This document shows positions 49 to 13,211 of a stretch of DNA of 13,211 nucleotides, in pieces. Source of the stretch: an uncultured bacterium (GTDB lineage: Bacteria; GCA-001730085); NCBI GenBank assembly GCA_964565945.1, contig CAZMGY010000014.1, positions 1 through 13,211 of the forward strand. Reading direction: 5' to 3'. The first letter of the stretch is position 1. Every line of letters begins with the position of its first letter. Position numbers and translations under genes: made by a program. The notes below the pieces were generated by a model. The model ran no database searches, was not told the DNA's origin, and saw only the letters and a program-made list of their open reading frames with translations.

Positions 49-1464
49 TTAAAGTTTCATAATCAGAAACAATTGCCTATACACTGGGAACCCTGTTGCG
101 TCTTCCGACATAACAGAAGGGGGATCGTAATTAACAGACCCATAATAGCTCATTCTAGGGACTCTTGTTACTGCTGCAGGGAACATATGGCGATGCTCAA
201 CTGGTGTCGACCAAATATATTGATGTCTTGGGGACGAACCCTTAGGTCTAACCCAGTGATTATTCAGCGAACTTGAGGTTGTGTTCTGGTAGGTTCGTCC
301 CCAATCTCCAACAGCATGTCCATGTGATATATCAATGAGGATCTCAGGATGATCGTAAGTATGAGTATGGCCCAAAGCCACTTTAGATGCTTCAATAACG
401 GCCTTATTCGTCACACTCGAAGCACCTCGTATGAATTCCCCTCTTAAATCAGGGGTCCCATGTAGTCCATTGCACAAGACCCAACCTTGAGGAATAGAGC
501 TTAATGTTCCTCGGTAAGAAGCAATCACACCCGATGGCAAAATATCATCACCGTTTTCGAAAATGCGACCTTCTGTGGTCAAGTCAACATCATGGGATCC
601 AGCTCCAATCTTAACATTACCCGTTTCACCTTCGATCATCAGAATAGGCTCACGTCCATCTATACGAGAATAGGACTCGACCACAAGTCCACGTTTTTTC
701 CAAATACCATTTCTACGTACCGAACCACCAACACGAAAACGCAAAGCATCACCATTAAACTTGGCTAAATTCTTCACTTGATCACCACCAGCTGGAGCTC
801 TTCGACCAGCAATAGCTTTACCCGCTCCAGAATCACTCACATACATGCCCCAAAAATTGTCCCCTGCAGACATAAGATTGTTAAAAAAAACTTTTTGACT
901 CACATGCAAATCTCCTGCAACCCTAATCTCTGCCGCAGAGGTCGTCGAACGTTCCACTTTTTTGTACTTGGTTGTCGACTCATTTTGACCTGCAGAAATA
1001 AAAATATCATGTTCCGTTCTGAGCGCTACAACACTGTCCGAGGCACGAACACTGTTGAATTCGCCAATCAAAGCATTCAGATGCGACCCCATATAAACTC
1101 CGCTGTTATTTTCAGAAAAAACAATTGAACCACCCGAAATATCGATATAGCTGTTCACCTGATTGATTGTTTTTTTGTTACCAGTGACGGGGTAGGGTTC
1201 AACTAGTTCATTCAAAATATACAAACCCTTATGAAACACAACAGGCTTAAGGTTCACTGTTTTTAAGTCCCCCTTCACACCATAAATCGAACCTGCTACG
1301 TTCAAATTATTGGCAAATAATAATTCAAAGTCGCCAAAGGGCGCAGGAACAAAACGCGAAATCTCGAGCTTCCTCTTTTTCGCCCAAAGAGAATCTTGCC
1401 CGATCATCATCAACGTAAGTAACATCACTGCAAAAATTTTAAGATTCCATCGTATCATTTTCAT
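49..1464 (-). CDS. Secreted tail-fibre-tip / tail-collar-domain-like protein (third, most downstream paralog)
   Basis: The long ORF 49..1479 starts in the track at a GTG (1479) that overlaps the upstream gene's stop. The ATG at 1462-1464 is preceded by GAGGGGTGAT (SD-like). It gives MKMIRWNLKIFAVMLLTLMMIGQDSLWA, which has a basic n-region, a hydrophobic core and an A-x-A-like end. The C-terminal third reads ILPSGVIASYRG..IPQGWVLCNGLHGTPDLRGEFIRGA, followed by HTH, HGH and HRH motifs, and ends in FLIMKL. It shares clear architecture and motifs with the two upstream genes. Confidence 0.85.
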   Translation of the reverse strand: MKMIRWNLKIFAVMLLTLMMIGQDSLWAKKRKLEISRFVPAPFGDFELLFANNLNVAGSIYGVKGDLKTVNLKPVVFHKGLYILNELVEPYPVTGNKKTINQVNSYIDISGGSIVFSENNSGVYMGSHLNALIGEFNSVRASDSVVALRTEHDIFISAGQNESTTKYKKVERSTTSAAEIRVAGDLHVSQKVFFNNLMSAGDNFWGMYVSDSGAGKAIAGRRAPAGGDQVKNLAKFNGDALRFRVGGSVRRNGIWKKRGLVVESYSRIDGREPILMIEGETGNVKIGAGSHDVDLTTEGRIFENGDDILPSGVIASYRGTLSSIPQGWVLCNGLHGTPDLRGEFIRGASSVTNKAVIEASKVALGHTHTYDHPEILIDISHGHAVGDWGRTYQNTTSSSLNNHWVRPKGSSPRHQYIWSTPVEHRHMFPAAVTRVPRMSYYGSVNYDPPSVMSEDATGFPVYRQLFLIMKL

Positions 1465-1475
1465 AGCATCACCCC

Positions 1476-2990
1476 TCACGTCTTCATCAAAAAGATAACT
1501 CTTGCAAAAGCTGGAAGTTCCTCCTCAGCACCAGAACTCCCACGGGATAAACTCCTACTGGCGGGTGCAGTCTTGACCTCGCCGCTGTACATCGGAAGAT
1601 CATAAACAACTTTACGACCAGAGGTCCCCATCAAATGCCCATGCAAAATAGGGAGCGCTCTCCATTGGGGAGTTGCAGTTGACGCCCAACCGCTATGGTA
1701 TTGGTTTCCATCAAAGTTGAACTTGGTGAAATTTCGATCCATCGTACTAGAACCAGCGTTATAAATCCCTTGGGTTGACGTCATACCACCTGAAAGAGAC
1801 GTCCACTTCATAGGAACAAAACCATTGACAGAGTTGTGATCGTGGTCAATCGAATAATTAAACTGAGGACGAGAGATCCAGTGCTGATGAGTATCATCAC
1901 CAAAAGAAGGGTGCCGATTAGTCCCATCAACTAGGGTAGATACGCCAGCAGGCGCACTCCGAAAAAAACTATCAACCATATCAGGGGTAGGAACCCCATT
2001 CACAACCTGTCCGTTACAGACAACCCATTCATTCCCAGAAGGGGGTGTATTACCTATGAATCCTACGATAAGCCCTGGAGGAACTAATTGTTGATTATTT
2101 TGCACAGCATACGTACCTGTGATGTCTAAATCGCCACTAATATAGATGGCACCATCGCTATCACGAATGGACATGAGCGTTTTATCAACATCATCTTCAA
2201 TAATCAAACCTGATGTTGCCCTGTCATCGGTGCGAATATAAAGATCATTTTTAAATGCTGGCTTTGTGGAATTTTGACCAATGCTGGCTTCCGAGCTAAT
2301 CGACCACACATTATCTGTACTGGAAAATCTCACACGTGGTATCGATACTTTGTCTCCCAAAAGATGAACGGTACCACTACCAGCATTATCAACAAAACGC
2401 CAGTTGGGCGCATCATCCGTTCCTAAAGAGGAGTTGACAGTGCTACTAGCACCTGGTTGAAGATAAATTTTTCCACGACTTCTTAACGAAATCGGCTCAC
2501 TAAATGCATTAACATCATTATTGAACACTAAGCCGTTGAATGAGTTCTGAAAAAATAAACCGCCACTTAGGCTATGATTATCAAACCGAAACTCTACTTT
2601 GTCCGATCTAAACATAATAAAATTAGACATTTGATCGTAAGTCTTAGCCGAATAAGGCTTTAAAAGCTCATTGGTCACACGAATCTCTTTAGGAATATAC
2701 AAAGGTTTCAAATCTTCTAACCGGCTCGGTGTCGAAAACAAGTCTGGAAGAGCACTGAGCACACCCGAAACCCAAAGCGTATTGGCTGTAATGTTGGCAT
2801 AATCACCCTCGGGTCCAGGGGTCGAATTGTAAAATTCCCTATTAATAATGTCTGCATTAGCAGATCCTTGCGCCGTCAAGGTGCTATTTCCAGTAGAAGC
2901 ATCATTGTCCACACTTTCAATAGAATAGACAGGAGAAACAAAAACTAATAGCATCAAACTTATTAAGCTATAAAAAAATCTGCATTTCAT
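1476..2990 (-). CDS. Secreted tail-fibre-tip / tail-collar-domain-like protein (second paralog)
   Basis: The ORF 1476..3014 starts in the track at a GTG at 3014. The ATG at 2988-2990 is preceded by GAGTGAGGTGTGAT and gives MKCRFFYSLISLMLLVFVSPVYS, a signal-peptide-like N-terminus. The C-terminal part reads LVPPGLIVGFIG..PSGNEWVVCNGQVVNGVPTPDMVDSFFRSA, followed by HQH, HDH and HGH motifs, and ends in VIFLMKT. Confidence 0.85.
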   Translation of the reverse strand: MKCRFFYSLISLMLLVFVSPVYSIESVDNDASTGNSTLTAQGSANADIINREFYNSTPGPEGDYANITANTLWVSGVLSALPDLFSTPSRLEDLKPLYIPKEIRVTNELLKPYSAKTYDQMSNFIMFRSDKVEFRFDNHSLSGGLFFQNSFNGLVFNNDVNAFSEPISLRSRGKIYLQPGASSTVNSSLGTDDAPNWRFVDNAGSGTVHLLGDKVSIPRVRFSSTDNVWSISSEASIGQNSTKPAFKNDLYIRTDDRATSGLIIEDDVDKTLMSIRDSDGAIYISGDLDITGTYAVQNNQQLVPPGLIVGFIGNTPPSGNEWVVCNGQVVNGVPTPDMVDSFFRSAPAGVSTLVDGTNRHPSFGDDTHQHWISRPQFNYSIDHDHNSVNGFVPMKWTSLSGGMTSTQGIYNAGSSTMDRNFTKFNFDGNQYHSGWASTATPQWRALPILHGHLMGTSGRKVVYDLPMYSGEVKTAPASRSLSRGSSGAEEELPAFARVIFLMKT

Positions 2991-3006
2991 ATCACACCTC
3001 ACTCTT

Positions 3007-4509
3007 TTACACACTTGCTAATTTTACAATGAACACAACATCGGCTCTTGGTAAGTTCCAATAGTTACTTCCCGATGTTGCACCATTAAAGGTAACAACT
3101 CTAGGGAGAGTCCTAAGTGGAGATTCAGGAATATCCACTTGCACAGTCCTGTTCCCAAGATGATGATAATGGTCCATGGACCCCACAGCTATGCCCGAGG
3201 GAGCGTGCGGACCAACTTTTAAAAAACAATAGTAAGGGGTATATCCATCATAGTTTGACGAATATCCAGACTCTGTTTGAAAGCTTTCGACTTGATAAGC
3301 CTTATATGCACCGCTTACAAGCCTGGTATTAGGCCAACCTATACTGCCACTCACTTTCCTGCCTCCATCATAGATGTTTGTGACCGTTCGAGCTCCCCAA
3401 ACAGAAGTGGTTTTCAAATCAATAAGCCCAAAAGATCCTGCAGGATGCTTATGCGTAACATCTGGATTGGATATAGCATTAGGTGTATGAAAATGGCTAT
3501 GGGGGGCACCTCCTCCAAAATCAGATACCTGAGGAAGCGGGCGTCCTCTTAAAAAACGACCAACAAGATTGGGGGTTACGTAGCCATTACTAAGTACTTG
3601 CCCATTGCACACGGCCCATCCTGAAGGGACCGAAGTTCCACAAAACATCATAATAGTCCCTGCTGGAACAATGTTTTGACCATTAATTTTAACCCTCTTC
3701 TTAACATATATATTGCCGCGCATAGTTACTTTGTCATTCGCAGGATCAACTTTAAGAGTCACTTCATTATTATCATTTTTAACAATTAACAAGCCTTGTT
3801 CATCTTTATTAACCGATAAAACAATTGCCTCGTCAAAACCAGCAGAGTTAATATTCTTTACGATCATCTGAGGAGACACATGCGAATTTCTTTTTTTATG
3901 CTCAAAATTAATAGGCATTTTTGTACGAAACTTCAGATTTCCTTGAACATACACATCTCCAGTAGGACTACTTTTATCCCAATGCTTATAATGACCTGGT
4001 GATTGAGAAAATAAAGGCTGCAAAAATACAGACCCTGTACTTCTTAATTGCATACCTGCGTCACTACCAGTCGTGTCGGTCAAAAGACCTACGCGTTGGT
4101 TATGTGCATAAATACCAGAAGATCGGGAAAACATCATTTTATTCGACAATAACGATAAAGAATCATTTGAAGCGGAAAGCACTGTATCCAAAACGGTATA
4201 AACATTATCGTCCGTTGGGATAATATCTCCCACAACAAAACCTTTATGAAGGTTCACTTTATTTATTTGGGCTAAAGAACTCACAGTGCTACTTTCAGTA
4301 TTGTAAATTCCACCAATCATTTTGAGACCATAGGTTCTCACACGACCATATTTGGCATAAGGAGTGGGGTAAAACGTGGTCGTAAAATGCTTTCGCACAG
4401 TCTTAGAATCTCCATAAACAGGGGCATCTAAGGCTAAATTTAAACCGAACACTAGAATCATTGACAGTGCATGACAACGTTGGACTTGAACTTTAAATTG
4501 AACATTCAT
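3007..4509 (-). CDS. Secreted tail-fibre-tip / tail-collar-domain-like protein (first paralog)
   Basis: The ORF 3007..4614 has a 35-codon N-terminal extension in the track that starts at a GTG and runs through a promoter-like region. The ATG at 4507-4509 is preceded by GGGGTGAAGAT and gives MNVQFKVQVQRCHALSMILVFGLNLALDA, which is signal-peptide-like. The C-terminal part reads IVPAGTIMMFCGTSVPSGWAVCNGQVLSNGYVTPNLVGRFLRGR, followed by HSHFH, HKH and HYHH motifs, and ends in VVFIVKLASV. Confidence 0.85.
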   Translation of the reverse strand: MNVQFKVQVQRCHALSMILVFGLNLALDAPVYGDSKTVRKHFTTTFYPTPYAKYGRVRTYGLKMIGGIYNTESSTVSSLAQINKVNLHKGFVVGDIIPTDDNVYTVLDTVLSASNDSLSLLSNKMMFSRSSGIYAHNQRVGLLTDTTGSDAGMQLRSTGSVFLQPLFSQSPGHYKHWDKSSPTGDVYVQGNLKFRTKMPINFEHKKRNSHVSPQMIVKNINSAGFDEAIVLSVNKDEQGLLIVKNDNNEVTLKVDPANDKVTMRGNIYVKKRVKINGQNIVPAGTIMMFCGTSVPSGWAVCNGQVLSNGYVTPNLVGRFLRGRPLPQVSDFGGGAPHSHFHTPNAISNPDVTHKHPAGSFGLIDLKTTSVWGARTVTNIYDGGRKVSGSIGWPNTRLVSGAYKAYQVESFQTESGYSSNYDGYTPYYCFLKVGPHAPSGIAVGSMDHYHHLGNRTVQVDIPESPLRTLPRVVTFNGATSGSNYWNLPRADVVFIVKLASV

Positions 4510-4545
4510 ATCTTCACCCCACACATTAACTCCAACTTCTAAAAT

Positions 4546-4575
4546 AGCATACCATACGTCGCACTGAAAAATCAA
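4546..4575 (-). promoter_or_regulatory. Putative sigma70-type promoter for the first fibre-tip-like gene (TTGATT-18-TATGCT)
   Basis: The minus strand reads ttgatt tttcagtgcgacgtatgg tatgct about 37 nt upstream of ATG 4509. The same hexamers are conserved in the duplicated copy. Confidence 0.45.
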
Positions 4576-4629
4576 ATAATACCAACAAATACCAATACAA
4601 TCAAGTAATAACACTTTGAGATTATAATG

Positions 4630-4745
4630 AATGTTGGACTTGAACTAATGTTGGAGTTGAACTTTAAATTGAACATTCATATTTTCACCCCGCACATTAA
4701 CTTTGGCTTCTAAGATAGCATACGTCGCACTGAGAGATTATCAAG
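4630..4745 (-). repeat. Duplicated copy of the promoter / RBS / first codons of the 3007..4509 gene (original at ~4478..4575)
   Basis: The segment 4647..4738 aligns by eye over ~92 bp with 4478..4569. The aligned elements are tttaaattgaacattcata-t-ttcacccc-cacattaac...ttcta-a-atagcata...cgtcgcactga. An extra 17-bp internal duplication (aatgttggacttgaac / taatgttggagttgaac) is present. The copy retains -35, -10, SD and ATG (4678-4680), but the reading frame stops after 11 codons (MNVQFKVQLQH*, 4645..4680). Confidence 0.85.
4717..4744 (-). promoter_or_regulatory. Putative duplicated promoter (TTGATA-16-TATGCT) upstream of the 11-codon relic ORF
   Basis: The minus strand reads ttgata atctctcagtgcgacg tatgct. 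Its geometry relative to ATG 4680 matches that of the proximal copy relative to ATG 4509. Confidence 0.4.
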
Positions 4746-4749
4746 TTAA

Positions 4750-4765
4750 CATAATATATATTATG
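4750..4765. repeat. Perfect 16-bp AT-rich palindrome CATAATATATATTATG in the giant-gene / fibre-gene intergenic region
   Basis: The sequence is self-complementary as read. It lies 24 nt downstream of the giant gene's stop codon and just upstream of the distal promoter copy. Its function is unknown. Confidence 0.9.
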
Positions 4766-4788
4766 CGACACTCTAACAACGCCCCTTC

Positions 4789-7700
4789 TTAGGCGCTATA
4801 CAAGGTCGAGTTCCGTTCAAACGTTCGAGCTAAGCTTACTCCTTCAACGAGCGGTGTTCCCTCAATAAGTTGAGAGAAAGATGCCCCTCCAGCCTTAGCA
4901 TCCAACGTGATTTCAGCCATATTAATCAATAATAATAGCTTTTGAACAAGTCTCTGAAGATCTTCGTTACCAATAGCTTGGACCCGCTTAATAGCCGCAC
5001 TCAAAGCCTCTACCGAATCACTAGGAAGAGCCAGTATATCTAAACCCAGATCTGTAAGCTCACCAAGAGAATCCTGGTAGCCCCTTAATCCTACCACTAA
5101 AGCTTTCAAGTTGGACACCTCCATGTTAGCCATTGCTAAAGCATGAACCTTAGCATTGAATAGTCCAAGAGCTATAATATACTCCTTAGTGTCCGCCGTA
5201 ATAGCTTTAGAAGTTAAACCATATTGTAGAAGCATTTCTGCCTCCGAAACAACCGCAGCTTTTGTCATCATCGAAGCTTTGATAGCTTCAAACAAAGCCG
5301 TATATTCAAACACCGCCTCCGAAGGAAAGCTTTCTTTAACGCGAACAACTCCAACCCAACGACTCCTTTCGGGACTCCAGCGAGTAACACCCGCAAACGG
5401 ACTATCCTCTGATTTATCAGTAAGATAAACTGTTTCTGTTTTCAAAGCAGCACGATCATTTTCTCTAAACTTAACTTGTTTTTTAGTTATACCCTCAGCG
5501 CGAGTATCAAAAGGATTAGCTTTACCTTTAAATCCTTGAACACGAGCAGCAGCTTCTGGGCTTACCAATTCTCCTCCCAAATCTAAGGCTAAAAGACTAG
5601 CACTCACTCTCTCTTCTTGCTTACCAGCTTGATTGCGACTTAAAAAGGCCTCAAAACGATCCTGCGTTACCAAGGGCCTTATATTCTCTGCAATTTTTCC
5701 ATAAAAAAGCTTGGTATTATCTGATTTTGAAAATTCAAATACTTCAGAACTATCTTTTTTATACAATTCTACAGAGGACTCTCCAGATTTAACCATGAGC
5801 AAAGCATAGACCGCCACAAGCTCGTCTGTTGTAGCTGCAATCAGGTTATCAAGATCTTTTTTAATTTGAGAACGAATTGCTTTTTTTGTTAGCGCAGTTG
5901 CACTCAAGTCATCCACCGACTTTTCCCACCGTACTAAGTTAAAAGTCTTTGACTTAGTCACCTCACTTGACGCCCCATCTTCTTGTTCAGCTTTTGCGTT
6001 CACCTTTAGAAATTCATTGTAATTCGCTGTATTCAGGTAGGGCTTTAGAGCCTCTTGAATTTCTTTATAACGCCACTTTGTTTTTGAAACTTTAACTGTT
6101 CCACCATTTTTTAGGTGCACTGTTCGATCGGAAGTACCAGCTTTAGCCCTAATCAAAGCATAGGCCGCCTCCTGCCTATTATATGTCTCAAATCCAACCC
6201 GGCCCTCAAGCCCTCTTTGAATTTGCCCAGAGAGTCCAGCTCTCGCTTGCTCAGGTGCATCCAATGATTGCACCACCTCTTCCCAAGTCTTTGACTTAGT
6301 ACGGGATGTCTGATTACTTACTCCAGGATCGTTCTCTTTCACCTTCTGTTTACCTCGTGCGTTCAGGGCTAAAAATTTAGTGTAAGCCCTTATATCCACG
6401 GAGAGCCGTAGATCGTCTGCAATTTTTCCATAAAAAAGCCTGTTATTTGATAGGCTTGAAACTTTTAATATTTCACCACTTATTGTCTTCAAGGTTGGTA
6501 CCTCGGACCTACCAGCTTTAACTATGAGCAAAGCATAGGCCGCCTCCTGCCTATATCCCTCAAATCCAACCAGGCTCTCAAGGTCTCTTTGAATTTGCGC
6601 AGAGAGTCCTTGTTTTCCCCCCGAAGTTATATCCAACGCTTGCACCGCCTCTTCCCAAGTCTTTGAATTATTCGCCTTACTTGACGCCCCATCTTCTTGT
6701 TCAGCTTTTGCGTTCACCTTTAGAAATTCATTGTAATTCGCTGTATTCAGGTAGGGCTTTAGAGCCTCTTGAATTTCTTTATAACGCCTCTTTGTTTTTG
6801 AAACTTTAACTGTTCCACCATTTTTGCGGTTCACTTTTTGATTGGAAGTACCAGCTTTAGCCATGATCAAAGCATAGGCCGCCGCCTCCCTATCTGTCTC
6901 AAATCCAACCAGGCTCTCAAGCTCTCTTTGAATTTGCCCAGAAAGTCCCTCTTTTACTTCGGCAGTTGCATCCAACGTTTGCACCGCCGCTTCCCAAGTT
7001 TTTGAGTCATTCGCCCTACTTGACGTCCCATCTTCCTGTTTACCTTTTGCGTTCAGATCTAGAAAGGCAAAATAATGCTCTGTATTCAGGCGGGAGGGGT
7101 CTAAACCCTCCGCGATTAAGCGATAGAACCACTGCTTTGCTAGTGAAGGCTCAACTATCCTACCATCTCTTAGCTTCAATTCTCGCTTGGGGGAAGAAGC
7201 AGGCGCATTTGAAACCAAAGGAATATCAGCTCTAGCCAGCATGAAAGCATAGGCCGCCTCCTCCTTATACTCCTCAAATCCAACCAGGTTCTTAAAAGCT
7301 CTTTTAAGGTTCGCAGAGACTTTGCTTTTCGTCACCTCATTTATAACAGTCAACCCTTGCAACACGTCTTCCCAAGTCTTTGAATCATTGGCCTTACTTG
7401 ACGTCGCACCTTCCTGTTCACCTGCATCGAATTGGGCAAGTTCATTTTTTGCGTTCAGCTCTAGAAATTGCTTGTACTTTGGTCTACCTATTATACTGGG
7501 ATCTAGGGCATTTAAGATGCCTTGATAGGCCCACCAGATGTCCGAAGATTTAACTGTTCCACCACCTCTTAGCTTCAATTCTTGATTGCCAAGCCCCTTC
7601 GGAGTCGCTCCTTTCTTCCCAGTCAAAGATGAACCAGTTCTAAGCAGGATCAAAGCATAGAGCGCCTCACTCGCATATTGCTCAGATCCAACAATGTTCT

Positions 7701-10700
7701 CAAAATCTTTTTTAATTTCATTGCGAAGCCTTGTTTTATTTTCCTGCTCTAGATTATCTAGGCCTGCCAGTGTGCTCTCTAGAAAAAGGTCTATATTCAA
7801 CGTCGCATCTTTAGCAGACGGGTCCTGTATACCTCTTTTGTTCAGCCGTAGAAAGTTAGCGTAATTCTCTTTATTCAGGTAGGGCTGTAGAGCCTCTCTA
7901 AGTTTCCTATACGGCACCAGGTTATAGTTTCCCTCTACGGTTCTACCATCTTTTAACTTCAATTCTTGATCGGAACCACTTCTAGACATGATCAAAGCAA
8001 AGGCCGCCTCCTCCTTATATTCGTCAAATCCAACCAGATTCGGAAGATCTCTTCGCATTTGAACCAAAAGTCCTTGTGTTGTTATCCCCGTTTCATCCAA
8101 GCTTTCCAGCACCTTTTCCCAATTACTTACTGCAAGAGCTTTCTCTTGCACCTCACCTATCGCCGCAGCTTGATCTTGCTGTTCACCTTTTGCGTTCAGC
8201 TCTAGAAATTTCTTGTACTTTGCTTGATCAAAGAGCCTATGTTCCCACATAATCTCTCCGACTCTTATATAATGTGAACGAGGGATTTCTGAAACTTTAA
8301 ATGTTTTGCCACCTTTTAGCTTCAATCTTACAGTGGTGGCCAAATCAGCTCTATCCATGATCACAGCATAGGCCGCCTCTTCCCTATAGTCCTCAAATCC
8401 AACCAGATTCTCAAGATATTGTTTTATGTCATTACGAATTGCTTCTATCATGTAAGAAGATACCTTCATAGAATCCAAGTATTTCAGCGCCTCTTCCCAA
8501 AGAACTTTCTCTTTCACCTTACCTGCCGCCGCAGCTTGATCTTGCTGTTCACCTTTTGCGTTCAGATCTAGAAATTCCTTGTACTTTGCTTGATTAATGA
8601 AGGTGGATAGATCCTTTTCGAGGGCTTGATAGTGAGGAAGCAGGCTGGGGAGACTAGGGGCAGCATCAGTTATTGTACCATCCTCTAGGGTCAATTTTAC
8701 ATCGGAAAAACCAGCTCTAAGCTTGACCAGAGCATAGATCGCCTCATCCGTATATTTCTCAAATCCACGCACCCGCTTAATATCTTTTTGAATTTCCGTA
8801 AAAAGTGCTTCTTTTATTTCATTAGATGTAGCCCGCAAGTTGTCCAGCACGTATTTCCAACCATTAAGAACGACCTTTACTGTACCATTGTCTAGGATCA
8901 ATTGTGTATCAATAGATATTTCTTCTTTTTTATCCCCAGACAAGTTTTCCACCACGTCTTCCCCATTATTAGGAGCGTCCTCTTGCGCCTCACCTGTCGC
9001 CTCAGCTTGCTGTTCACCTTTTGCGTTCACCTTTAGAAATTCATGGTACTTTGCTTGATCAATGAAGGTGGATAGATCCTTTTCGAGGGCTTGATAGTGA
9101 GGAAGCAGGTTGGGGTCATTAGGGACAGTATCAATTATTCTACCATCCTCTAGGGTCAATTTTACATCGGAAAAATCAGCTCTAAGCTTGACCAGAGCAT
9201 AGGCCGCCTCATCCGTATATTTCTCAAATCCACGCACCTGCTTAATATCTTCTTGAATTTCCGCAAAAAGTGCTTTTTTTATCACGTCGTCTTCCCAATT
9301 ATTAGGAGCGTCCTCTTGCGCCTCACCTTCCGCCTCAGCTTGCTGTTCACCTTGTGCGTTCAGATCTAGAAATTCCTTGTACTTTGCTTGAGCAAAAAGT
9401 GCTTCTTTTATCACGTCTTCCAAATTATTAGGAGCCCCCTCTTGCGCCTCACCTTCCGCCGCATATTGCTGTGCATGTTTTGCGTTCATCTCTAGAAATT
9501 CATTGTACGTTGTTTGATTAATCAGGAGGCGTAGCGCCTCTTCGAAATCTCGATAATGAGAAAGCAGAGGCTTTCTGGATGTAAGTCCAGATGCTCCATT
9601 AATCATTTCACCATTCTTTAGGATCAATTGTGGACTGGAAAAACCAGCTCTAAGCCTAACTATAGCATAGACCGCCTCATCCATATATTTCTCATGTCCA
9701 TGCAGAGACTCCATATCTTTTAGAATTTCCGTAAAAATTTCTCCGTATATGTTCTCAGACACATCCAGCAAGTCTTCCAGCACATCTTCCCAAGTCCACT
9801 CAGCATCATTAGGAGCCCCCTCTTGCGCCGCACCTGTCGCCTCAGCTTGCTGTTCACCTTGTGCGTTCATCTCTACAGAAGCTTTCTCTTGCGCCTCACC
9901 TTGCTGTTCACCTTGTGCGTTCATCTCTACAGAAGCTTTCTCTTGCGCCGCACCTGTCGCCTCAGCTTGCTGTGCACCTTGTGCGTTCAGGGTTAAAAAT
10001 TCATTGTAATTCGTTCTATTTATCTGGGGCCGTAGAAGCGCTTCAATTTCTTTATAACGCCCCTCTGTTCTTGAAGTTGTAACTGTTCCACCACCTTTTA
10101 GCTTCAATTCTTGATCGGAAACACCACCTTTAGCCTTGATCAAAGCATAGAGCGCCTCCTCCCTATATTGCTCAAATCCAACCACCCTCCTACGCTCTTT
10201 TTTAATTTGATTATAAAGACCTTGTCGTGTACTATGATCTGCACTCAACTGATTCACCGCCTCTTCCAAAATCTTTAACTCCTTCGCCTCACCTAGCGTC
10301 GCACCTTGCTGTTTATCTTTTGCTTGGTTCGCTAGTAGAAAGGTACCGTAAAGAGAGAGAAAGCGTTCCATTGAGTTAGCTAGAATTATCTTCTCTTGTT
10401 CTTGAACAAATTCTATTTCTAACTCTTCTGTTGAATTTGTGAAGACTGTTTTCTTCCATGCTTCAAAAGAAGGATAGCCGCCACCCTCAACCTCCTGAGC
10501 CTTCCTCCACTTTGCTAAAGAACCAAATTTCTCCTTATTATTAGGATCCTCCATAAAAACAAAAGTAGCGAGAAGATCAAGCATAATTTGTCTATAAGCA
10601 GACCTCGTTTCGCTTGATTCTGGAACTTCAACTACTGCACCATTTTTTAGATTCACTTCATTCTTGGAAAGAGAACCTTTAGCCTTAGCCCAAGCATACA

Positions 10701-11835
10701 TCGCCATAAAAACGTCCGTCTCAGCTCCAACCACTTCTTGCTTAACCTTCTCTTTCATAGACTTATCACCAAGGAAAGCTTTTCTTTTAGAATTTTCCAA
10801 CATCCAAGCATTCCAAGCTTCTGCGCCTGTCGAAGCAGCTACTACAGGCTCTTCTTCCTTTTTCTTTTGCTTTTGTTGTTGTTGACCTTGTTCTTCGTTT
10901 TTGTGGTTGGCACTTAAAAAGTCATTGTAATCCACTTCCGATATCCGCCCAGAGCCTTCTAAAACTCCTGCTATCGTCTTATAATACTCCGTCTTCCATA
11001 TTGATTGTCCTATTTGAATTGGGCTATTATCTATTGTTTCTAATTTTATCCCCTCGACCATACCACCTTCAATCCTGGCCAAAGCCAAGAGTGCCGCCAA
11101 CTCGTTTTTCTCAGATCCAACTATTTTCCTAACATTGTGTTGCAGTTCCTTAAAAAAGGGGTCTGTTAGCCACATCCCAGCTGCCACAAGCACATCCCTC
11201 GCCGCCTCTAAACTGTGGGATGATACCTCTTTACCAGCTACTACTACAGTTGTTTGCTGTTTTTCCTCTTTACGCTGGGTTCTAAGCATCTCTGGCGTAA
11301 CTTCAGGAGGAGTTTCTAGCTCCAATTTCTCACCCAAAACAATCAATGTTTTGCGCACAACGAATTTACCCTCAATTTCACCAGCAAGCGCTTTCCTTGC
11401 AAACAAACGCAACGCAGTATTATTCTTATCCGCAGTTAAACCAATCGCCGAACCTCCATCCGATGGACGAAACACCAGCTCAACAAACTGCTTATCCAGT
11501 CCCATTTTACTTGCAATCGCTTCCTTCACATCGTCTACAGTTTGGTCCGGCATAAGTTTCACATCAACTTCAAAATGATCACGCGTAGCCGCAAAACCAA
11601 ATTTGGTAGCACTCTCACCAGAAACTTTACCCCAACTCTCAACCGTAAGCTTGCCCAAATCGATCTCGTTTGGTATCTTCTCTTGAAGATCCTTTCCTGT
11701 AACCTGCATCTCCACAAGCGCCTGTTCAAAACCACGCAATTTCGTAGATGTGGCCAAAGACCATGCCCCTCTTGACACCACTGTTACCATAGCAAACACT
11801 AAAAATATTACCCATAGCCTCATAATACTATTCAT
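4789..11835 (-). CDS. Giant (2348 aa) signal-peptide-bearing tandem-repeat protein, unrecognised repeat family, with a unique C-terminal domain
   Basis: The ORF is 7,047 nt without interruption. The ATG at 11833-11835 has GAGGAGA 9 nt upstream and a TTGATA-17-TATAAT promoter further upstream. The N-terminus MNSIMRLWVIFLVFAMVTVVSRGAWS is a hydrophobic signal or anchor. About 14 repeat units are marked by (L/V)VGFExY(R/K)EEAAYALI..AG ... LKLK.GGTVKVS ... Y.EFL.LNAKGEQQ. The non-repeat C-terminal region (aa ~2100-2348) ends in GVSLARTFERNSTLYSA. Confidence 0.9.
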   Translation of the reverse strand: MNSIMRLWVIFLVFAMVTVVSRGAWSLATSTKLRGFEQALVEMQVTGKDLQEKIPNEIDLGKLTVESWGKVSGESATKFGFAATRDHFEVDVKLMPDQTVDDVKEAIASKMGLDKQFVELVFRPSDGGSAIGLTADKNNTALRLFARKALAGEIEGKFVVRKTLIVLGEKLELETPPEVTPEMLRTQRKEEKQQTTVVVAGKEVSSHSLEAARDVLVAAGMWLTDPFFKELQHNVRKIVGSEKNELAALLALARIEGGMVEGIKLETIDNSPIQIGQSIWKTEYYKTIAGVLEGSGRISEVDYNDFLSANHKNEEQGQQQQKQKKKEEEPVVAASTGAEAWNAWMLENSKRKAFLGDKSMKEKVKQEVVGAETDVFMAMYAWAKAKGSLSKNEVNLKNGAVVEVPESSETRSAYRQIMLDLLATFVFMEDPNNKEKFGSLAKWRKAQEVEGGGYPSFEAWKKTVFTNSTEELEIEFVQEQEKIILANSMERFLSLYGTFLLANQAKDKQQGATLGEAKELKILEEAVNQLSADHSTRQGLYNQIKKERRRVVGFEQYREEALYALIKAKGGVSDQELKLKGGGTVTTSRTEGRYKEIEALLRPQINRTNYNEFLTLNAQGAQQAEATGAAQEKASVEMNAQGEQQGEAQEKASVEMNAQGEQQAEATGAAQEGAPNDAEWTWEDVLEDLLDVSENIYGEIFTEILKDMESLHGHEKYMDEAVYAIVRLRAGFSSPQLILKNGEMINGASGLTSRKPLLSHYRDFEEALRLLINQTTYNEFLEMNAKHAQQYAAEGEAQEGAPNNLEDVIKEALFAQAKYKEFLDLNAQGEQQAEAEGEAQEDAPNNWEDDVIKKALFAEIQEDIKQVRGFEKYTDEAAYALVKLRADFSDVKLTLEDGRIIDTVPNDPNLLPHYQALEKDLSTFIDQAKYHEFLKVNAKGEQQAEATGEAQEDAPNNGEDVVENLSGDKKEEISIDTQLILDNGTVKVVLNGWKYVLDNLRATSNEIKEALFTEIQKDIKRVRGFEKYTDEAIYALVKLRAGFSDVKLTLEDGTITDAAPSLPSLLPHYQALEKDLSTFINQAKYKEFLDLNAKGEQQDQAAAAGKVKEKVLWEEALKYLDSMKVSSYMIEAIRNDIKQYLENLVGFEDYREEAAYAVIMDRADLATTVRLKLKGGKTFKVSEIPRSHYIRVGEIMWEHRLFDQAKYKKFLELNAKGEQQDQAAAIGEVQEKALAVSNWEKVLESLDETGITTQGLLVQMRRDLPNLVGFDEYKEEAAFALIMSRSGSDQELKLKDGRTVEGNYNLVPYRKLREALQPYLNKENYANFLRLNKRGIQDPSAKDATLNIDLFLESTLAGLDNLEQENKTRLRNEIKKDFENIVGSEQYASEALYALILLRTGSSLTGKKGATPKGLGNQELKLRGGGTVKSSDIWWAYQGILNALDPSIIGRPKYKQFLELNAKNELAQFDAGEQEGATSSKANDSKTWEDVLQGLTVINEVTKSKVSANLKRAFKNLVGFEEYKEEAAYAFMLARADIPLVSNAPASSPKRELKLRDGRIVEPSLAKQWFYRLIAEGLDPSRLNTEHYFAFLDLNAKGKQEDGTSSRANDSKTWEAAVQTLDATAEVKEGLSGQIQRELESLVGFETDREAAAYALIMAKAGTSNQKVNRKNGGTVKVSKTKRRYKEIQEALKPYLNTANYNEFLKVNAKAEQEDGASSKANNSKTWEEAVQALDITSGGKQGLSAQIQRDLESLVGFEGYRQEAAYALLIVKAGRSEVPTLKTISGEILKVSSLSNNRLFYGKIADDLRLSVDIRAYTKFLALNARGKQKVKENDPGVSNQTSRTKSKTWEEVVQSLDAPEQARAGLSGQIQRGLEGRVGFETYNRQEAAYALIRAKAGTSDRTVHLKNGGTVKVSKTKWRYKEIQEALKPYLNTANYNEFLKVNAKAEQEDGASSEVTKSKTFNLVRWEKSVDDLSATALTKKAIRSQIKKDLDNLIAATTDELVAVYALLMVKSGESSVELYKKDSSEVFEFSKSDNTKLFYGKIAENIRPLVTQDRFEAFLSRNQAGKQEERVSASLLALDLGGELVSPEAAARVQGFKGKANPFDTRAEGITKKQVKFRENDRAALKTETVYLTDKSEDSPFAGVTRWSPERSRWVGVVRVKESFPSEAVFEYTALFEAIKASMMTKAAVVSEAEMLLQYGLTSKAITADTKEYIIALGLFNAKVHALAMANMEVSNLKALVVGLRGYQDSLGELTDLGLDILALPSDSVEALSAAIKRVQAIGNEDLQRLVQKLLLLINMAEITLDAKAGGASFSQLIEGTPLVEGVSLARTFERNSTLYSA
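5965..6111 (-). repeat. 147-bp block nearly identical to 6679..6825 (repeat unit 13 vs unit 11)
   Basis: Direct comparison of the text shows acttgacgccccatcttcttgttcagcttttgcgttcacctttagaaattcattgtaattcgctgtattcaggtagggctttagagcctcttgaatttctttataacgcc[a/t]ctttgtttttgaaactttaactgttccaccattttt. I see a single mismatch. The offset is 714 bp. Confidence 0.9.
6679..6825 (-). repeat. Partner copy of the 147-bp block at 5965..6111
   Basis: Same evidence as 5965..6111. Both copies encode ...GGTVKVSKTK(R/W)RYKEIQEALKPYLNTANYNEFLKVNAKAEQEDGASS. Confidence 0.9.
9821..9989 (-). repeat. In-frame tandem micro-repeat: two 54-bp units (9847..9900, 9901..9954) nested in a 120-bp direct repeat (9821.. and 9941..)
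   Basis: The 54-bp unit ttgctgttcaccttgtgcgttcatctctacagaagctttctcttgcgcc(t/g)cacc occurs twice back to back. It encodes GEAQEKASVEMNAQGEQQ twice within AQQAEATGAAQEKASVEMNAQGEQQGEAQEKASVEMNAQGEQQAEATGAAQEG. Confidence 0.9.
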
Positions 11836-11903
11836 TGTCTCGTATCTCCTCTACTCAATTACTACCTGCGCAACAAACATAACTCAATTCTAGTTGTTCG
11901 GAT

Positions 11904-11932
11904 ATTATAACATCTAATTCAATACTTATCAA
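11904..11932 (-). promoter_or_regulatory. Near-consensus sigma70-type promoter of the giant gene (TTGATA-17-TATAAT)
   Basis: The minus strand reads ttgata agtattgaattagatgt tataat. The -10 element lies ~69 nt upstream of ATG 11835, and GAGGAGA (11845-11851) lies 9 nt before the ATG. Confidence 0.6.
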
Positions 11933-12138: not shown

Positions 12139-12374
12139 CTATACAAGGTTGAGTTCCATTCAAACGTCCGAGCTAACTTTACTCCTTTAACAACCGATGT
12201 TCCCCCAATAACAGCAGGGAAAGCTACTCCTCCAATCCTATGATCTAACATATTTTGATACATATTAGTCAGAAATAATAGTTTATGAACAAATCTTTGC
12301 TTCAGCGAGAGGTGTCGGGTTACCTGTTCCGAAAGCTCGTTAATATCTCTAAAATGTTGTTCTGTTTTTAATTC
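12139..12374 (-). pseudogene. Orphan, diverged copy of the giant protein's C-terminal ~79 codons (gene relic)
   Basis: Minus-strand translation gives ELKTEQHFRDINELSEQVTRHLSLKQRFVHKLLFLTNMYQNMLDHRIGGVAFPAVIGGTSVVKGVKLARTFEWNSTLYRV. This aligns with the giant protein's ...DLQRLVQKLLLLINMAEITLDAKAGGASFSQLIEGTPLVEGVSLARTFERNSTLYSA. About half the residues are identical by eye, and the last 17 are nearly identical. DNA similarity is visible between ctatacaaggt.gagttcc.ttcaaacgt.cgagctaa at 12139.. and the matching text at 4796... An in-frame stop lies at 12375-12377 with no upstream body. The native stop is lost, so the frame reads on to 11919 through the giant gene's promoter. The track's 114-aa ORF 11919..12263 is part of this relic. 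Confidence 0.6.
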
Positions 12375-12897: not shown

Positions 12898-13211
12898 TTG
12901 ATAAAAGCCCTTGAGCAGCACTTCCCTGCTTTAAATAGTAATAGTACTATTAAATCTTTAACTTTGATCAATACCTTTTGTTGGAATGAAAAAGTTGCTA
13001 CTTTTACCCAGTGCTATGGTGCTGATGAATTAGATTCAGGGAATCTGCTTATGTGGACTATGGTTTTATCGATGCGAAGGATCTTCGCTATGTCAGTACG
13101 GTGGAACGGACTTGGGAAGAACTTTGCCAAGACCACTTGATGTATCGCTACAACAGCGAAGATGATTTTGAAATCCCGTCCTCGTCGTTCACGGTGTGTA
13201 CCTTTTGGATG
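12898..13211 (+). pseudogene. GH15 (glucoamylase/trehalase-like glycoside hydrolase family 15) gene relic, 3' part, frame-disrupted, continues beyond the window
   Basis: The frame from 12898 reads ...FCWNEKVATFTQCYGADELDSGNLLMW. A different frame from 13029 reads ...YGFIDAKDLRYVSTVERTWEELCQDHLMYRYNSEDDFEIPSSSFTVCTFWM and stays open to the window end. Joined, they match my recollection of the conserved GH15 C-terminal pattern (F.Q.Y....LDAS.LLMP..GF....DPR...T...I...L....L..RY...DD........F..C.FW). The join requires a frameshift near 13052-13058. Weaker similarity extends back to ~12780 in a third frame segment (..HLMQSLSLDK|ALEQ..). The ~350-400 codons expected upstream are absent. Confidence 0.55.

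Follow-up and report, generated by a model that had tools for sequence, protein, structure and literature searches.

A conserved triad of tail-collar-like paralogs with export signals, next to a giant repeat protein gene, in an uncultured relative of the PVC group

The stretch of DNA analyzed here (the window) is an entire NCBI contig of 13,211 bp, CAZMGY010000014.1, from an uncultured relative of the PVC group (planctomycetes, verrucomicrobia, chlamydiae). Four co-oriented open reading frames (ORFs) on the minus strand occupy positions 49-11835: a gene for a giant repeat protein, followed by three smaller paralogs that we call A, B, and C. An earlier note, made from the letters of the window, had described them as a four-gene module of exported proteins, with phage tail-collar tips on the three smaller ones, lying outside any phage context, matching no described system, and possibly acquired or rearranged. 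The genes and the main parts of the giant are the following:

11835..4789, minus strand: gene of the giant secreted repeat protein, 2348 amino acids
5566..11223, minus strand: repeat array of the giant, 14 divergent units of 113-183 amino acids
4792..5655, minus strand: C-terminal domain of the giant, ~290 amino acids, ending ...ARTFERNSTLYSA
4509..3007, minus strand: gene of paralog A, 500 amino acids counted from the ATG at 4509
2990..1476, minus strand: gene of paralog B, 504 amino acids
1464..49, minus strand: gene of paralog C, 471 amino acids

The true start of A is the ATG at 4509, which has GGGGTGA ahead of it. Two longer starts, that of a 535-amino-acid ORF, which lies upstream of the real ATG, and that of a 505-amino-acid database call, were judged wrong. 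The spacer between A and B measures 16 nucleotides and that between B and C 11, each with a ribosome-binding site of the form G(A/G)GGTG inside it. The three paralogs have a common layout, made up of a leader, an N-domain of ~110 amino acids, a variable middle, and a C-terminal collar/HxH module, one such module per chain:

A, 500 amino acids: signal peptide; N-domain at ~40-200; middle; collar/HxH module at ~278-500, with HxH motifs at 337/339, 353, and 447; end VVFIVKLASV
B, 504 amino acids: signal peptide ending …SPVYS, before IE; N-domain; middle; HxH motifs at 368, 383, and 450; end VIFLMKT
C, 471 amino acids: signal peptide; N-domain with PAPFGDFE; longer middle; HxH motifs at 366, 381, and 424; end LFLIMKL

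The C-terminal module follows the pattern P.G.I..F.G...P.GW..C(N/D)G...TP(D/N)L...F.RG, continues with three HxH sites, which fall at aligned positions in every A, B, and C sequence, and finishes with a closing hydrophobic strand (VVFIVKL in A, V.FLMKT in B, F.LIMK. in C). Pfam recognized the Collar family, PF07484, in A (E-value 8e-7, 29.3 bits against a cut-off of 24). The match covers profile positions 1-24 of 57 only, because the central Y.ALF..LG..YGGDG segment of the Collar model is absent; B (0.027, 14.9 bits) and C (0.07, 13.5 bits) each scored below the same cut-off. The tail-collar and tail-fibre families of PHROGs matched A at 9e-11, B at 2e-3, and C at 6e-13, while the profile built for the family matched solved tail fibres (9qgo at 1e-8, 9cuy at 4e-6, 9nxk at 1e-5) and T4 gp12 (1pdi at 1e-4, 1ocy at 3e-4). 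Judged by these Pfam, PHROGs, and PDB matches, the C-terminal modules are true homologues of phage tail-collar receptor-binding modules, as had been read from the letters of the three smaller genes. In the published structures of gp12 and gp37, each of the three chains contributes HxH motifs that coordinate Zn or Fe along the three-fold axis, and the three aligned HxH layers of A, B, and C suggest a metal-stapled trimer of the same kind.

The N-domain carries the motifs (F/Y)P.P(Y/F)G(D)(F/Y)E ... P(V)..HKG ... G(L/I) ... LRS.G.I.LQP, and profile searches gave no match for it in Pfam, NCBIfam, or the PDB. By these searches the domain is new and specific to the A/B/C family and to the N-domain relatives described below. 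Ahead of it, each paralog has a leader, as does the giant: all four N-termini combine a K/R-containing start with a hydrophobic core of 10-14 residues (mean Kyte-Doolittle value 2.1-3.2), and no later transmembrane-like segment was found in any of the four window proteins. Our signal-peptide calls are heuristics of charge and hydrophobicity, taken together with conservation. The leader pattern is present in 19 of the 22 N-termini tabulated (20 family members and 2 giants), so that the Sec-type N-termini proposed for all four proteins are both present and conserved across loci. Three sequences lack it: L001_A has a miscalled start and recovers the leader if translation begins at a TTG farther upstream, L001_B carries a frameshift, and the start called for L087_B may be incorrect.

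The family is rare. An exhaustive HMMER search of 1.84 billion protein representatives returned ~10 full-length members and four shorter relatives that match the N-terminal part only, three of them collar-less and one (P0074) a truncated fragment of B type; another 12,855 proteins with a generic collar match the family profile only at positions ~270-400. Word-index searches for homologues were nearly empty (4, 3, and 1 matches), exact-product look-ups of the giant and of P0001 gave no match, and a contig scan using A-type sequence patterns found nothing. Five further loci were obtained through context look-ups and compared with the window:

Window (NCBI contig, 13.2 kb): giant, A, B, C
L001 (ENA): repeat protein, A, B (frameshifted), C
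L002 (Logan): C-terminus of a giant-type gene, A, B, C (cut)
L085 (ENA): A, B (cut)
L087 (ENA): end of a C-type gene, A, B (cut)
L086 (NCBI, 34-kb contig): A, B, C fragment, C

B follows A in all six loci, and C comes after B in all four that reach that far. Relatives of A are 26-47% identical to their counterpart in the window, those of B 30-45%, and those of C 31-45%. Since identity from locus to locus (26-47%) is far above that of A, B, and C to one another (~23%), the triplication is old and all three copies have been kept. Moreover, L001 and L086 share a homologous gene on the downstream flank. From these comparisons, the three paralogs are ancient orthogroups and look to have been inherited vertically, so the acquisition or rearrangement suggested in the earlier note is not the main story. 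Two loci show variations on the order. In L087, the gene before A (3-149) ends in ...SSTLPTHQEMLFIIKVSS, a C-type C-terminus, and the resulting order C, A, B implies either tandem triads or a rotated order. In L086, an extra gene of 200 amino acids (12917-13519) lies between B and C and consists of the leader and N-domain of C only; it is 28-32% identical to C-type N-termini and represents a truncated fourth paralog.

The surroundings of the triad are not those of a phage. Besides the collar modules, the window has no capsid, terminase, sheath, tube, baseplate, integrase, lysis, or other phage-like gene, and no phage genes were found in L001, L002, L085, or L087. L086 comes from 'PVC group bacterium (ex Bugula neritina AB1)'; the AB1_div genome represents a deep lineage of the PVC superphylum near candidate division NPL-UPA2 (PMC5041132). 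Directly 5′ of the triad of L086 there is a 1.3-kb ORF-free gap that holds an RNase P class A RNA (9005-9358, minus strand; Rfam RF00010, 237 bits), and uppS, cdsA, dxr, rseP, proS, nusA, and infB lie farther out on the same side. Downstream of the triad come two genes without a Pfam match and then a gene matching SMC_N and AAA_15. No phage gene was called within 10 kb on either side. Since housekeeping genes and the RNase P RNA lie upstream, the triad of L086 is not part of a prophage, the structure whose presence in the flanks the earlier note had left to be checked. In IMG/VR no full-length relative was found, patterns of the N-domain found no viral contig, and phage contigs were matched by the collar motif region only. 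The anti-phage defence models of PADLOC gave no match to A, B, or C at E-values up to 0.01, and we rejected a reading of the module as a defence system. None of the sequence libraries (Pfam, NCBIfam, PHROGs, PADLOC, database names) names the system, the database names of family proteins being absent or 'hypothetical protein', and our literature searches on tail collars in Chlamydiae, or on tail collars with adhesin and signal peptide, found nothing. The two claims made from the letters, a non-phage context and no match to a described system, both withstood these searches. We conclude that the finding is real and is neither an artefact nor a prophage.

The giant protein consists of a signal peptide (~1-26), a unique N-terminal region up to residue ~204, 14 repeats (205-2090), and a C-terminal domain (~2061-2348). 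The core of the repeat reads W-E..LVGFE.Y.EEAAYALI..AG....LKLK.G.TV....Y..I...L.P....Y.EFL.LNAKGEQ. The protein matched nothing in Pfam, NCBIfam, PADLOC, or the PDB, and in a word index of 5.8 billion proteins it found only itself. One repeat unit was modelled with AlphaFold2 (AF2) using the 14 internal repeats as the alignment; an alignment of two repeats, which MAFFT had staggered, was dropped. The model has five helices and a small hairpin (predicted local distance difference test score, pLDDT, 89; predicted template modelling score, pTM, 0.82), and Foldseek found no match for it in the PDB or BFVD (best E-value above 1, TM-score no higher than 0.37). A repeat that is confidently modelled and has no structural match may represent a new fold.

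Large proteins precede N-domain genes in other lineages as well. In L002, the cut ORF before A is 37.5% identical to the last 280 amino acids of the giant. In L003, a second locus of the same Bugula bacterium, a secreted protein of 2763 amino acids is followed by a protein of 340 amino acids that shares the N-domain only. In L090-92, from another lineage, the same pairing with an N-domain gene occurs, and the C-terminus of the large protein is 35-39% identical to the upstream ORF of L003. In all, a large secreted or repeat protein lies directly 5′ of an N-domain gene in the window, L001, L002, and L003, which represent four lineages, and in L090-92. Hidden Markov models of the giant repeat and of its C-terminal domain detected nothing in the upstream proteins of L001 and L003, and an hhalign comparison between the two types of giant C-terminal domain returned a probability below 1%. 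We observed that these upstream proteins all end in [LFYM]-[SA]-A (LYSA, AFSA, NLSA, SLSA, ALAA, AMAA):

Window, 4789-4836, C-terminal end of the giant
L002, 2-835
L001, 2386-3108
L003, 40-1524 and 1583-9874
L090, 1-1008

Most of them also have an aromatic residue 8-10 positions before the end, and their C-terminal domains are not detectably homologous. The common end may, to judge from its sequence, be a docking, processing, or secretion tag.

The collar-less N-domain genes have neighbours of their own. In L003 (11782-13879), L088 (1408-4974), and L090 (2273-5768) such a gene is always followed by a TPR-LysM-YkuD (L,D-transpeptidase) gene, accA, and cysS. This neighbourhood, found in three lineages whose GC content ranges from 35% to 48%, is conserved core chromosome with a peptidoglycan-remodelling enzyme adjacent to the N-domain gene. 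In the low-GC loci L084 (72-3676) and L089 (50-2189), a collar-less N-domain relative sits among genes of prepilin type (Pfam N_methyl, 6e-7 to 6e-5); in L084 a GspF/PilC gene (T2SSF, 4e-53) precedes it, and three N_methyl-motif genes lie nearby. The context of L084 and L089 suggests a possible connection of the N-domain with a type IV pilus or with a filament like that of the type II secretion system (T2SS). Occurring as it does beside giant secreted proteins (L003, L090-92) or beside pseudopilin and GspF genes (L084, L089), the N-domain points to a role in an envelope apparatus.

The best matches to the family profile outside the family (E-values 1e-34 to 1e-25) are single polypeptides with three tandem, diverged short-collar/HxH modules (P0012, P0014, P0015, P0017-19, P0024, and P0028; loci L093-L095). 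Their modules are of the same variant as those of A, B, and C, with GW..CNG.NGTPDLR.RF, several HxH motifs, and LPPYY.LAFI.K. They differ in the number of modules per polypeptide, three, and in the absence of the N-domain, whereas A, B, and C carry one module and one N-domain each and are encoded by three genes. At E-values up to 1e-10 the profile found 909 matches, many with three matched stretches. When ten triple-collar-type sequences were examined, three modules were found in eight, and a signal peptide, a lipobox, or an N-terminal membrane-anchor-like segment likewise in eight; some have a C-terminal membrane anchor as well. The metagenome contigs that carry P0015 are short and show no obvious phage genes beside it. 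The triple-collar proteins apparently form a large, unstudied class, and they look like exported pseudo-trimers. The oddity pointed out in the earlier note, exported collar tips outside phage, is therefore real here but not unique, and the fact that exported collar-module proteins are common outside phages lowers the surprise of that aspect.

Taking these observations together, we lean, if only slightly, toward reading the conserved core as a chromosomal three-paralog operon for exported, trimeric, metal-stapled fibres, which would be the cell's own adhesins or receptor-binding fibres. The giant would be transcribed from a strong promoter-like site upstream of it, and A, B, and C would be co-transcribed or expressed from sites in the duplicated spacer before A (both described below). 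Sec would export all four products through the leaders that we observed. After export, the C-terminal modules would trimerise round three metal sites, the HxH layers binding Zn or Fe on the three-fold axis as in gp12 and gp37. The N-domain would dock the fibre to an envelope structure, either the C-terminal end of the giant or, in other lineages, a pseudopilus, and the tip would bind a ligand on a host, neighbouring, or partner cell.

By analogy, the nearest functional counterpart would be the MAT (mosaic adhesive trimer) fibres of Bdellovibrio bacteriovorus, bacterial and chromosomally encoded proteins with a signal peptide, a trimeric stalk, and variable phage-tail-fibre-like tips (Caulton et al., 2024, PMC10769870). 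Their presumed place is the cell surface, where they would attach to another cell, and their conserved, beta-rich N-domain of ~130 amino acids has no PDB homologue and no known partner (PMC10769870). Both families combine a signal peptide, a conserved N-domain (~110 amino acids in ours, the two being likened by description), and a phage-type tip. The MAT tips have S74 or other folds, whereas those of A, B, and C are of the collar/HxH type and gave no Pfam match to Peptidase_S74; MAT proteins are encoded by scattered single genes, form homotrimers, and have no giant repeat partner, whereas here the triad A-B-C is fixed. With T4 gp12 and the tail-collar fibres (PF07484; 1OCY, 1PDI, 9CUY, 9QGO) the homology lies in the C-terminal modules, which share P.G.I..F.G..P.GW..C.G...TPDL..F.RG, then HxH, then the closing hydrophobic strand. 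In contrast to these phage proteins, A, B, and C lack Y.ALF..LG..YGGDG, have signal peptides and a different N-domain, and are found outside any virion or baseplate context. Fibres that cells encode and export, with tips of phage type, are already known; what is new here is the N-domain, the ancient three-paralog operon, the pairing with giant proteins, and possibly a heterotrimeric build.

Several points weigh against the reading as exported fibres of the cell's own. Context beyond the ends of the window is available only from the related loci. The AF2 monomer of A, built on an alignment of 15 sequences, had a pLDDT of 47 and was unusable for a fold search. The window encodes no outer-membrane translocation route or anchor, and no lipobox, autotransporter domain, or sorting domain was detected in its proteins. 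As for the giant, its position in L001 is taken by an unrelated repeat protein, and its link to the triad fails in L086, where no giant gene lies upstream. The four-gene module of the earlier note is thus upheld by the relative of the giant before A in L002 and breaks down in L001 and L086, and the co-occurrence it had called for in gene neighbourhoods applies to the order of the triad in six loci and to the C-terminal domain of the giant before A in L002, but not to the giant in all of them. The giant is not an obligate partner, but an accessory and not a defining part; in the window and L002, it is probably a co-expressed partner, serving either as a scaffold or as an item displayed with the fibres. 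The stalk role that the earlier note proposed for the giant, like the surface location of the fibres, would be conjectural.

These same observations could mean that the giant adjoins the triad without any relation to it, perhaps as a secreted effector or a surface-layer-like protein, and that the functional unit consists of A, B, and C only. Such an account fits L086 and the non-homologous upstream protein of L001, and A-B-C have promoter-like sites of their own in the 174-nucleotide spacer. It does not agree with the recurrence of large secreted or repeat proteins directly before N-domain genes in four lineages plus L090-92, nor with their shared [LFYM]-[SA]-A ends despite unrelated domains, and we give it appreciable weight, although less than an even chance.

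A different possibility concerns the composition of the fibre. A, B, and C could form one obligate 1:1:1 heterotrimer, in which each HxH layer receives one motif from each chain, as if a triple-collar protein had been split. All three orthogroups occur in the same order, with gaps of 9-18 nucleotides between intact genes, wherever a locus extends far enough, and the three chains have equal numbers of HxH motifs at the same aligned positions. Moreover, the first histidine of site 2 is lost in both A and B of L086, although this co-loss is a single case. The best matches outside the family carry exactly three diverged tandem modules per chain, and that three non-identical modules exist in nature as one unit makes an A·B·C heterotrimer plausible. 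A model for it, with no homology to A, B, or C, is vertebrate C1q, a recognition protein in which three tandem-encoded paralogous chains build a heterotrimeric stalk with globular heads. Nevertheless, the phage relatives of known structure are homotrimers, each entry having three chains of identical sequence, and the middle regions of the paralogs differ in length (127, 135, and 162 amino acids) with no clear covariation across loci, so we regard the obligate heterotrimer as rather doubtful. More tentative still is its extension, an obligate, metal-stapled A·B·C heterotrimer whose N-domains dock on giant C-terminal ends or on pseudopili, which would amount to a new envelope appendage of a deep, host-associated PVC lineage.

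We consider it improbable that the triad supplies a type IV pilus or T2SS pseudopilus with its tip or accessory adhesins, the N-domain being docked on minor pilins and carried by them to the surface. The N-domain relatives between prepilin-type genes in L084 and L089, in L084 also after GspF/PilC, are what speaks for this. However, these relatives beside pilin genes have no collar module. Close to the triad, neither the window nor L001, L002, or L086 has a pilin, GspF, or secretin gene, and A, B, and C have no prepilin motif (no Pfam match to N_methyl). Least credible by far is a degraded prophage, tailocin, or contractile-injection remnant with its tail-fibre genes left over: the tips are homologous to phage tail fibres, gene relics lie upstream, and the window's own flanks are unseen, but every chain has a signal peptide, orthologues are intact in at least five lineages at 26-47% identity, L086 has housekeeping genes upstream, no other phage family was matched in any locus, and the N-domain is absent from viral contigs.

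The reuse by cells of phage receptor-binding modules as surface fibres has been shown experimentally only recently, with the Bdellovibrio MAT fibres. On the favoured reading as exported fibres, the A/B/C family would be a second, independent case, set apart by its collar/HxH tip, by a new domain for anchoring, and by its fixed set of three paralogs. Its carriers are uncultured, partly animal-associated bacteria of the PVC superphylum, and we know of no account of how they attach to their hosts. If the heterotrimer were true, A·B·C would be the first heterotrimeric relative of phage tail-fibre tips and the gene-split counterpart of the triple-collar proteins. The triad offers a clean way to test whether trimers of the tail-fibre type can become heterotrimers in evolution, and it points to the large, unstudied class of exported triple-collar proteins.

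The remaining features of the window lie upstream of the giant and in the spacer before A:

11932..11904, minus strand: sigma-70-like promoter, TTGATA-17-TATAAT with extended -10 TG, 69 nucleotides 5′ of the ATG of the giant
4476..4723, minus strand: tandem partial duplication of the 5′ region of A, with copies at 4476-4552 and 4647-4723
12141..12299, minus strand: relic of the C-terminus of a second giant-type gene, stop codon lost (tblastn)
12898..13211, plus strand: relic of a GH15-type trehalase/glucoamylase gene, 5′-truncated and frameshifted, reaching the end of the contig; a neighbour outside the module

The site at 11932..11904, which the earlier note had taken for a strong promoter, agrees with the consensus at 11 of 12 positions and is the top-scoring site of the window, as a match to the consensus only. 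The 174-nucleotide spacer between the giant and A, together with the start of A, holds a direct repeat of 77 nucleotides (4476-4552 and 4647-4723, 88% identical), with one promoter-like site, 9 of 12 consensus positions, upstream of each copy (4604..4576 and 4744..4717). The duplicated promoter reported earlier thus corresponds to a real repeat, but one that involves more than a promoter: it also spans the ribosome-binding site and the ATG of A as well as its first 10 codons, and the upstream copy thereby forms an 11-codon mini-ORF, MNVQFKVQLQH*. No repeat of this type precedes A in L001, L002, or L086. The feature could serve as a leader peptide or in regulation, or could simply be a recent duplication. 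Scans of the window for Rfam families and tRNA genes were empty.

The GH15 relic, which had been read as a truncated gene, matched TreH1 of NCBIfam (1e-9, profile positions 426-509 of 570), but only on a reading spliced across the frameshift, and Pfam detected nothing in it. The orphan C-terminal fragment is genuine: at 12141-12299, tblastn found ~53 last codons of a giant-type gene, 58% identical over 53 amino acids to residues 2294-2346 of the giant (E-value 3e-14). This relic and the tandem giant paralogs of L003 indicate that giant-type genes seem to turn over side by side. Within the giant gene itself, some repeat units are 92-94% identical at the DNA level (5943-6179 and 6657-6893; 8534-8817 and 8999-9282) and others only 60-70%, which argues that the array is still being reshaped by recent intragenic duplication or conversion.

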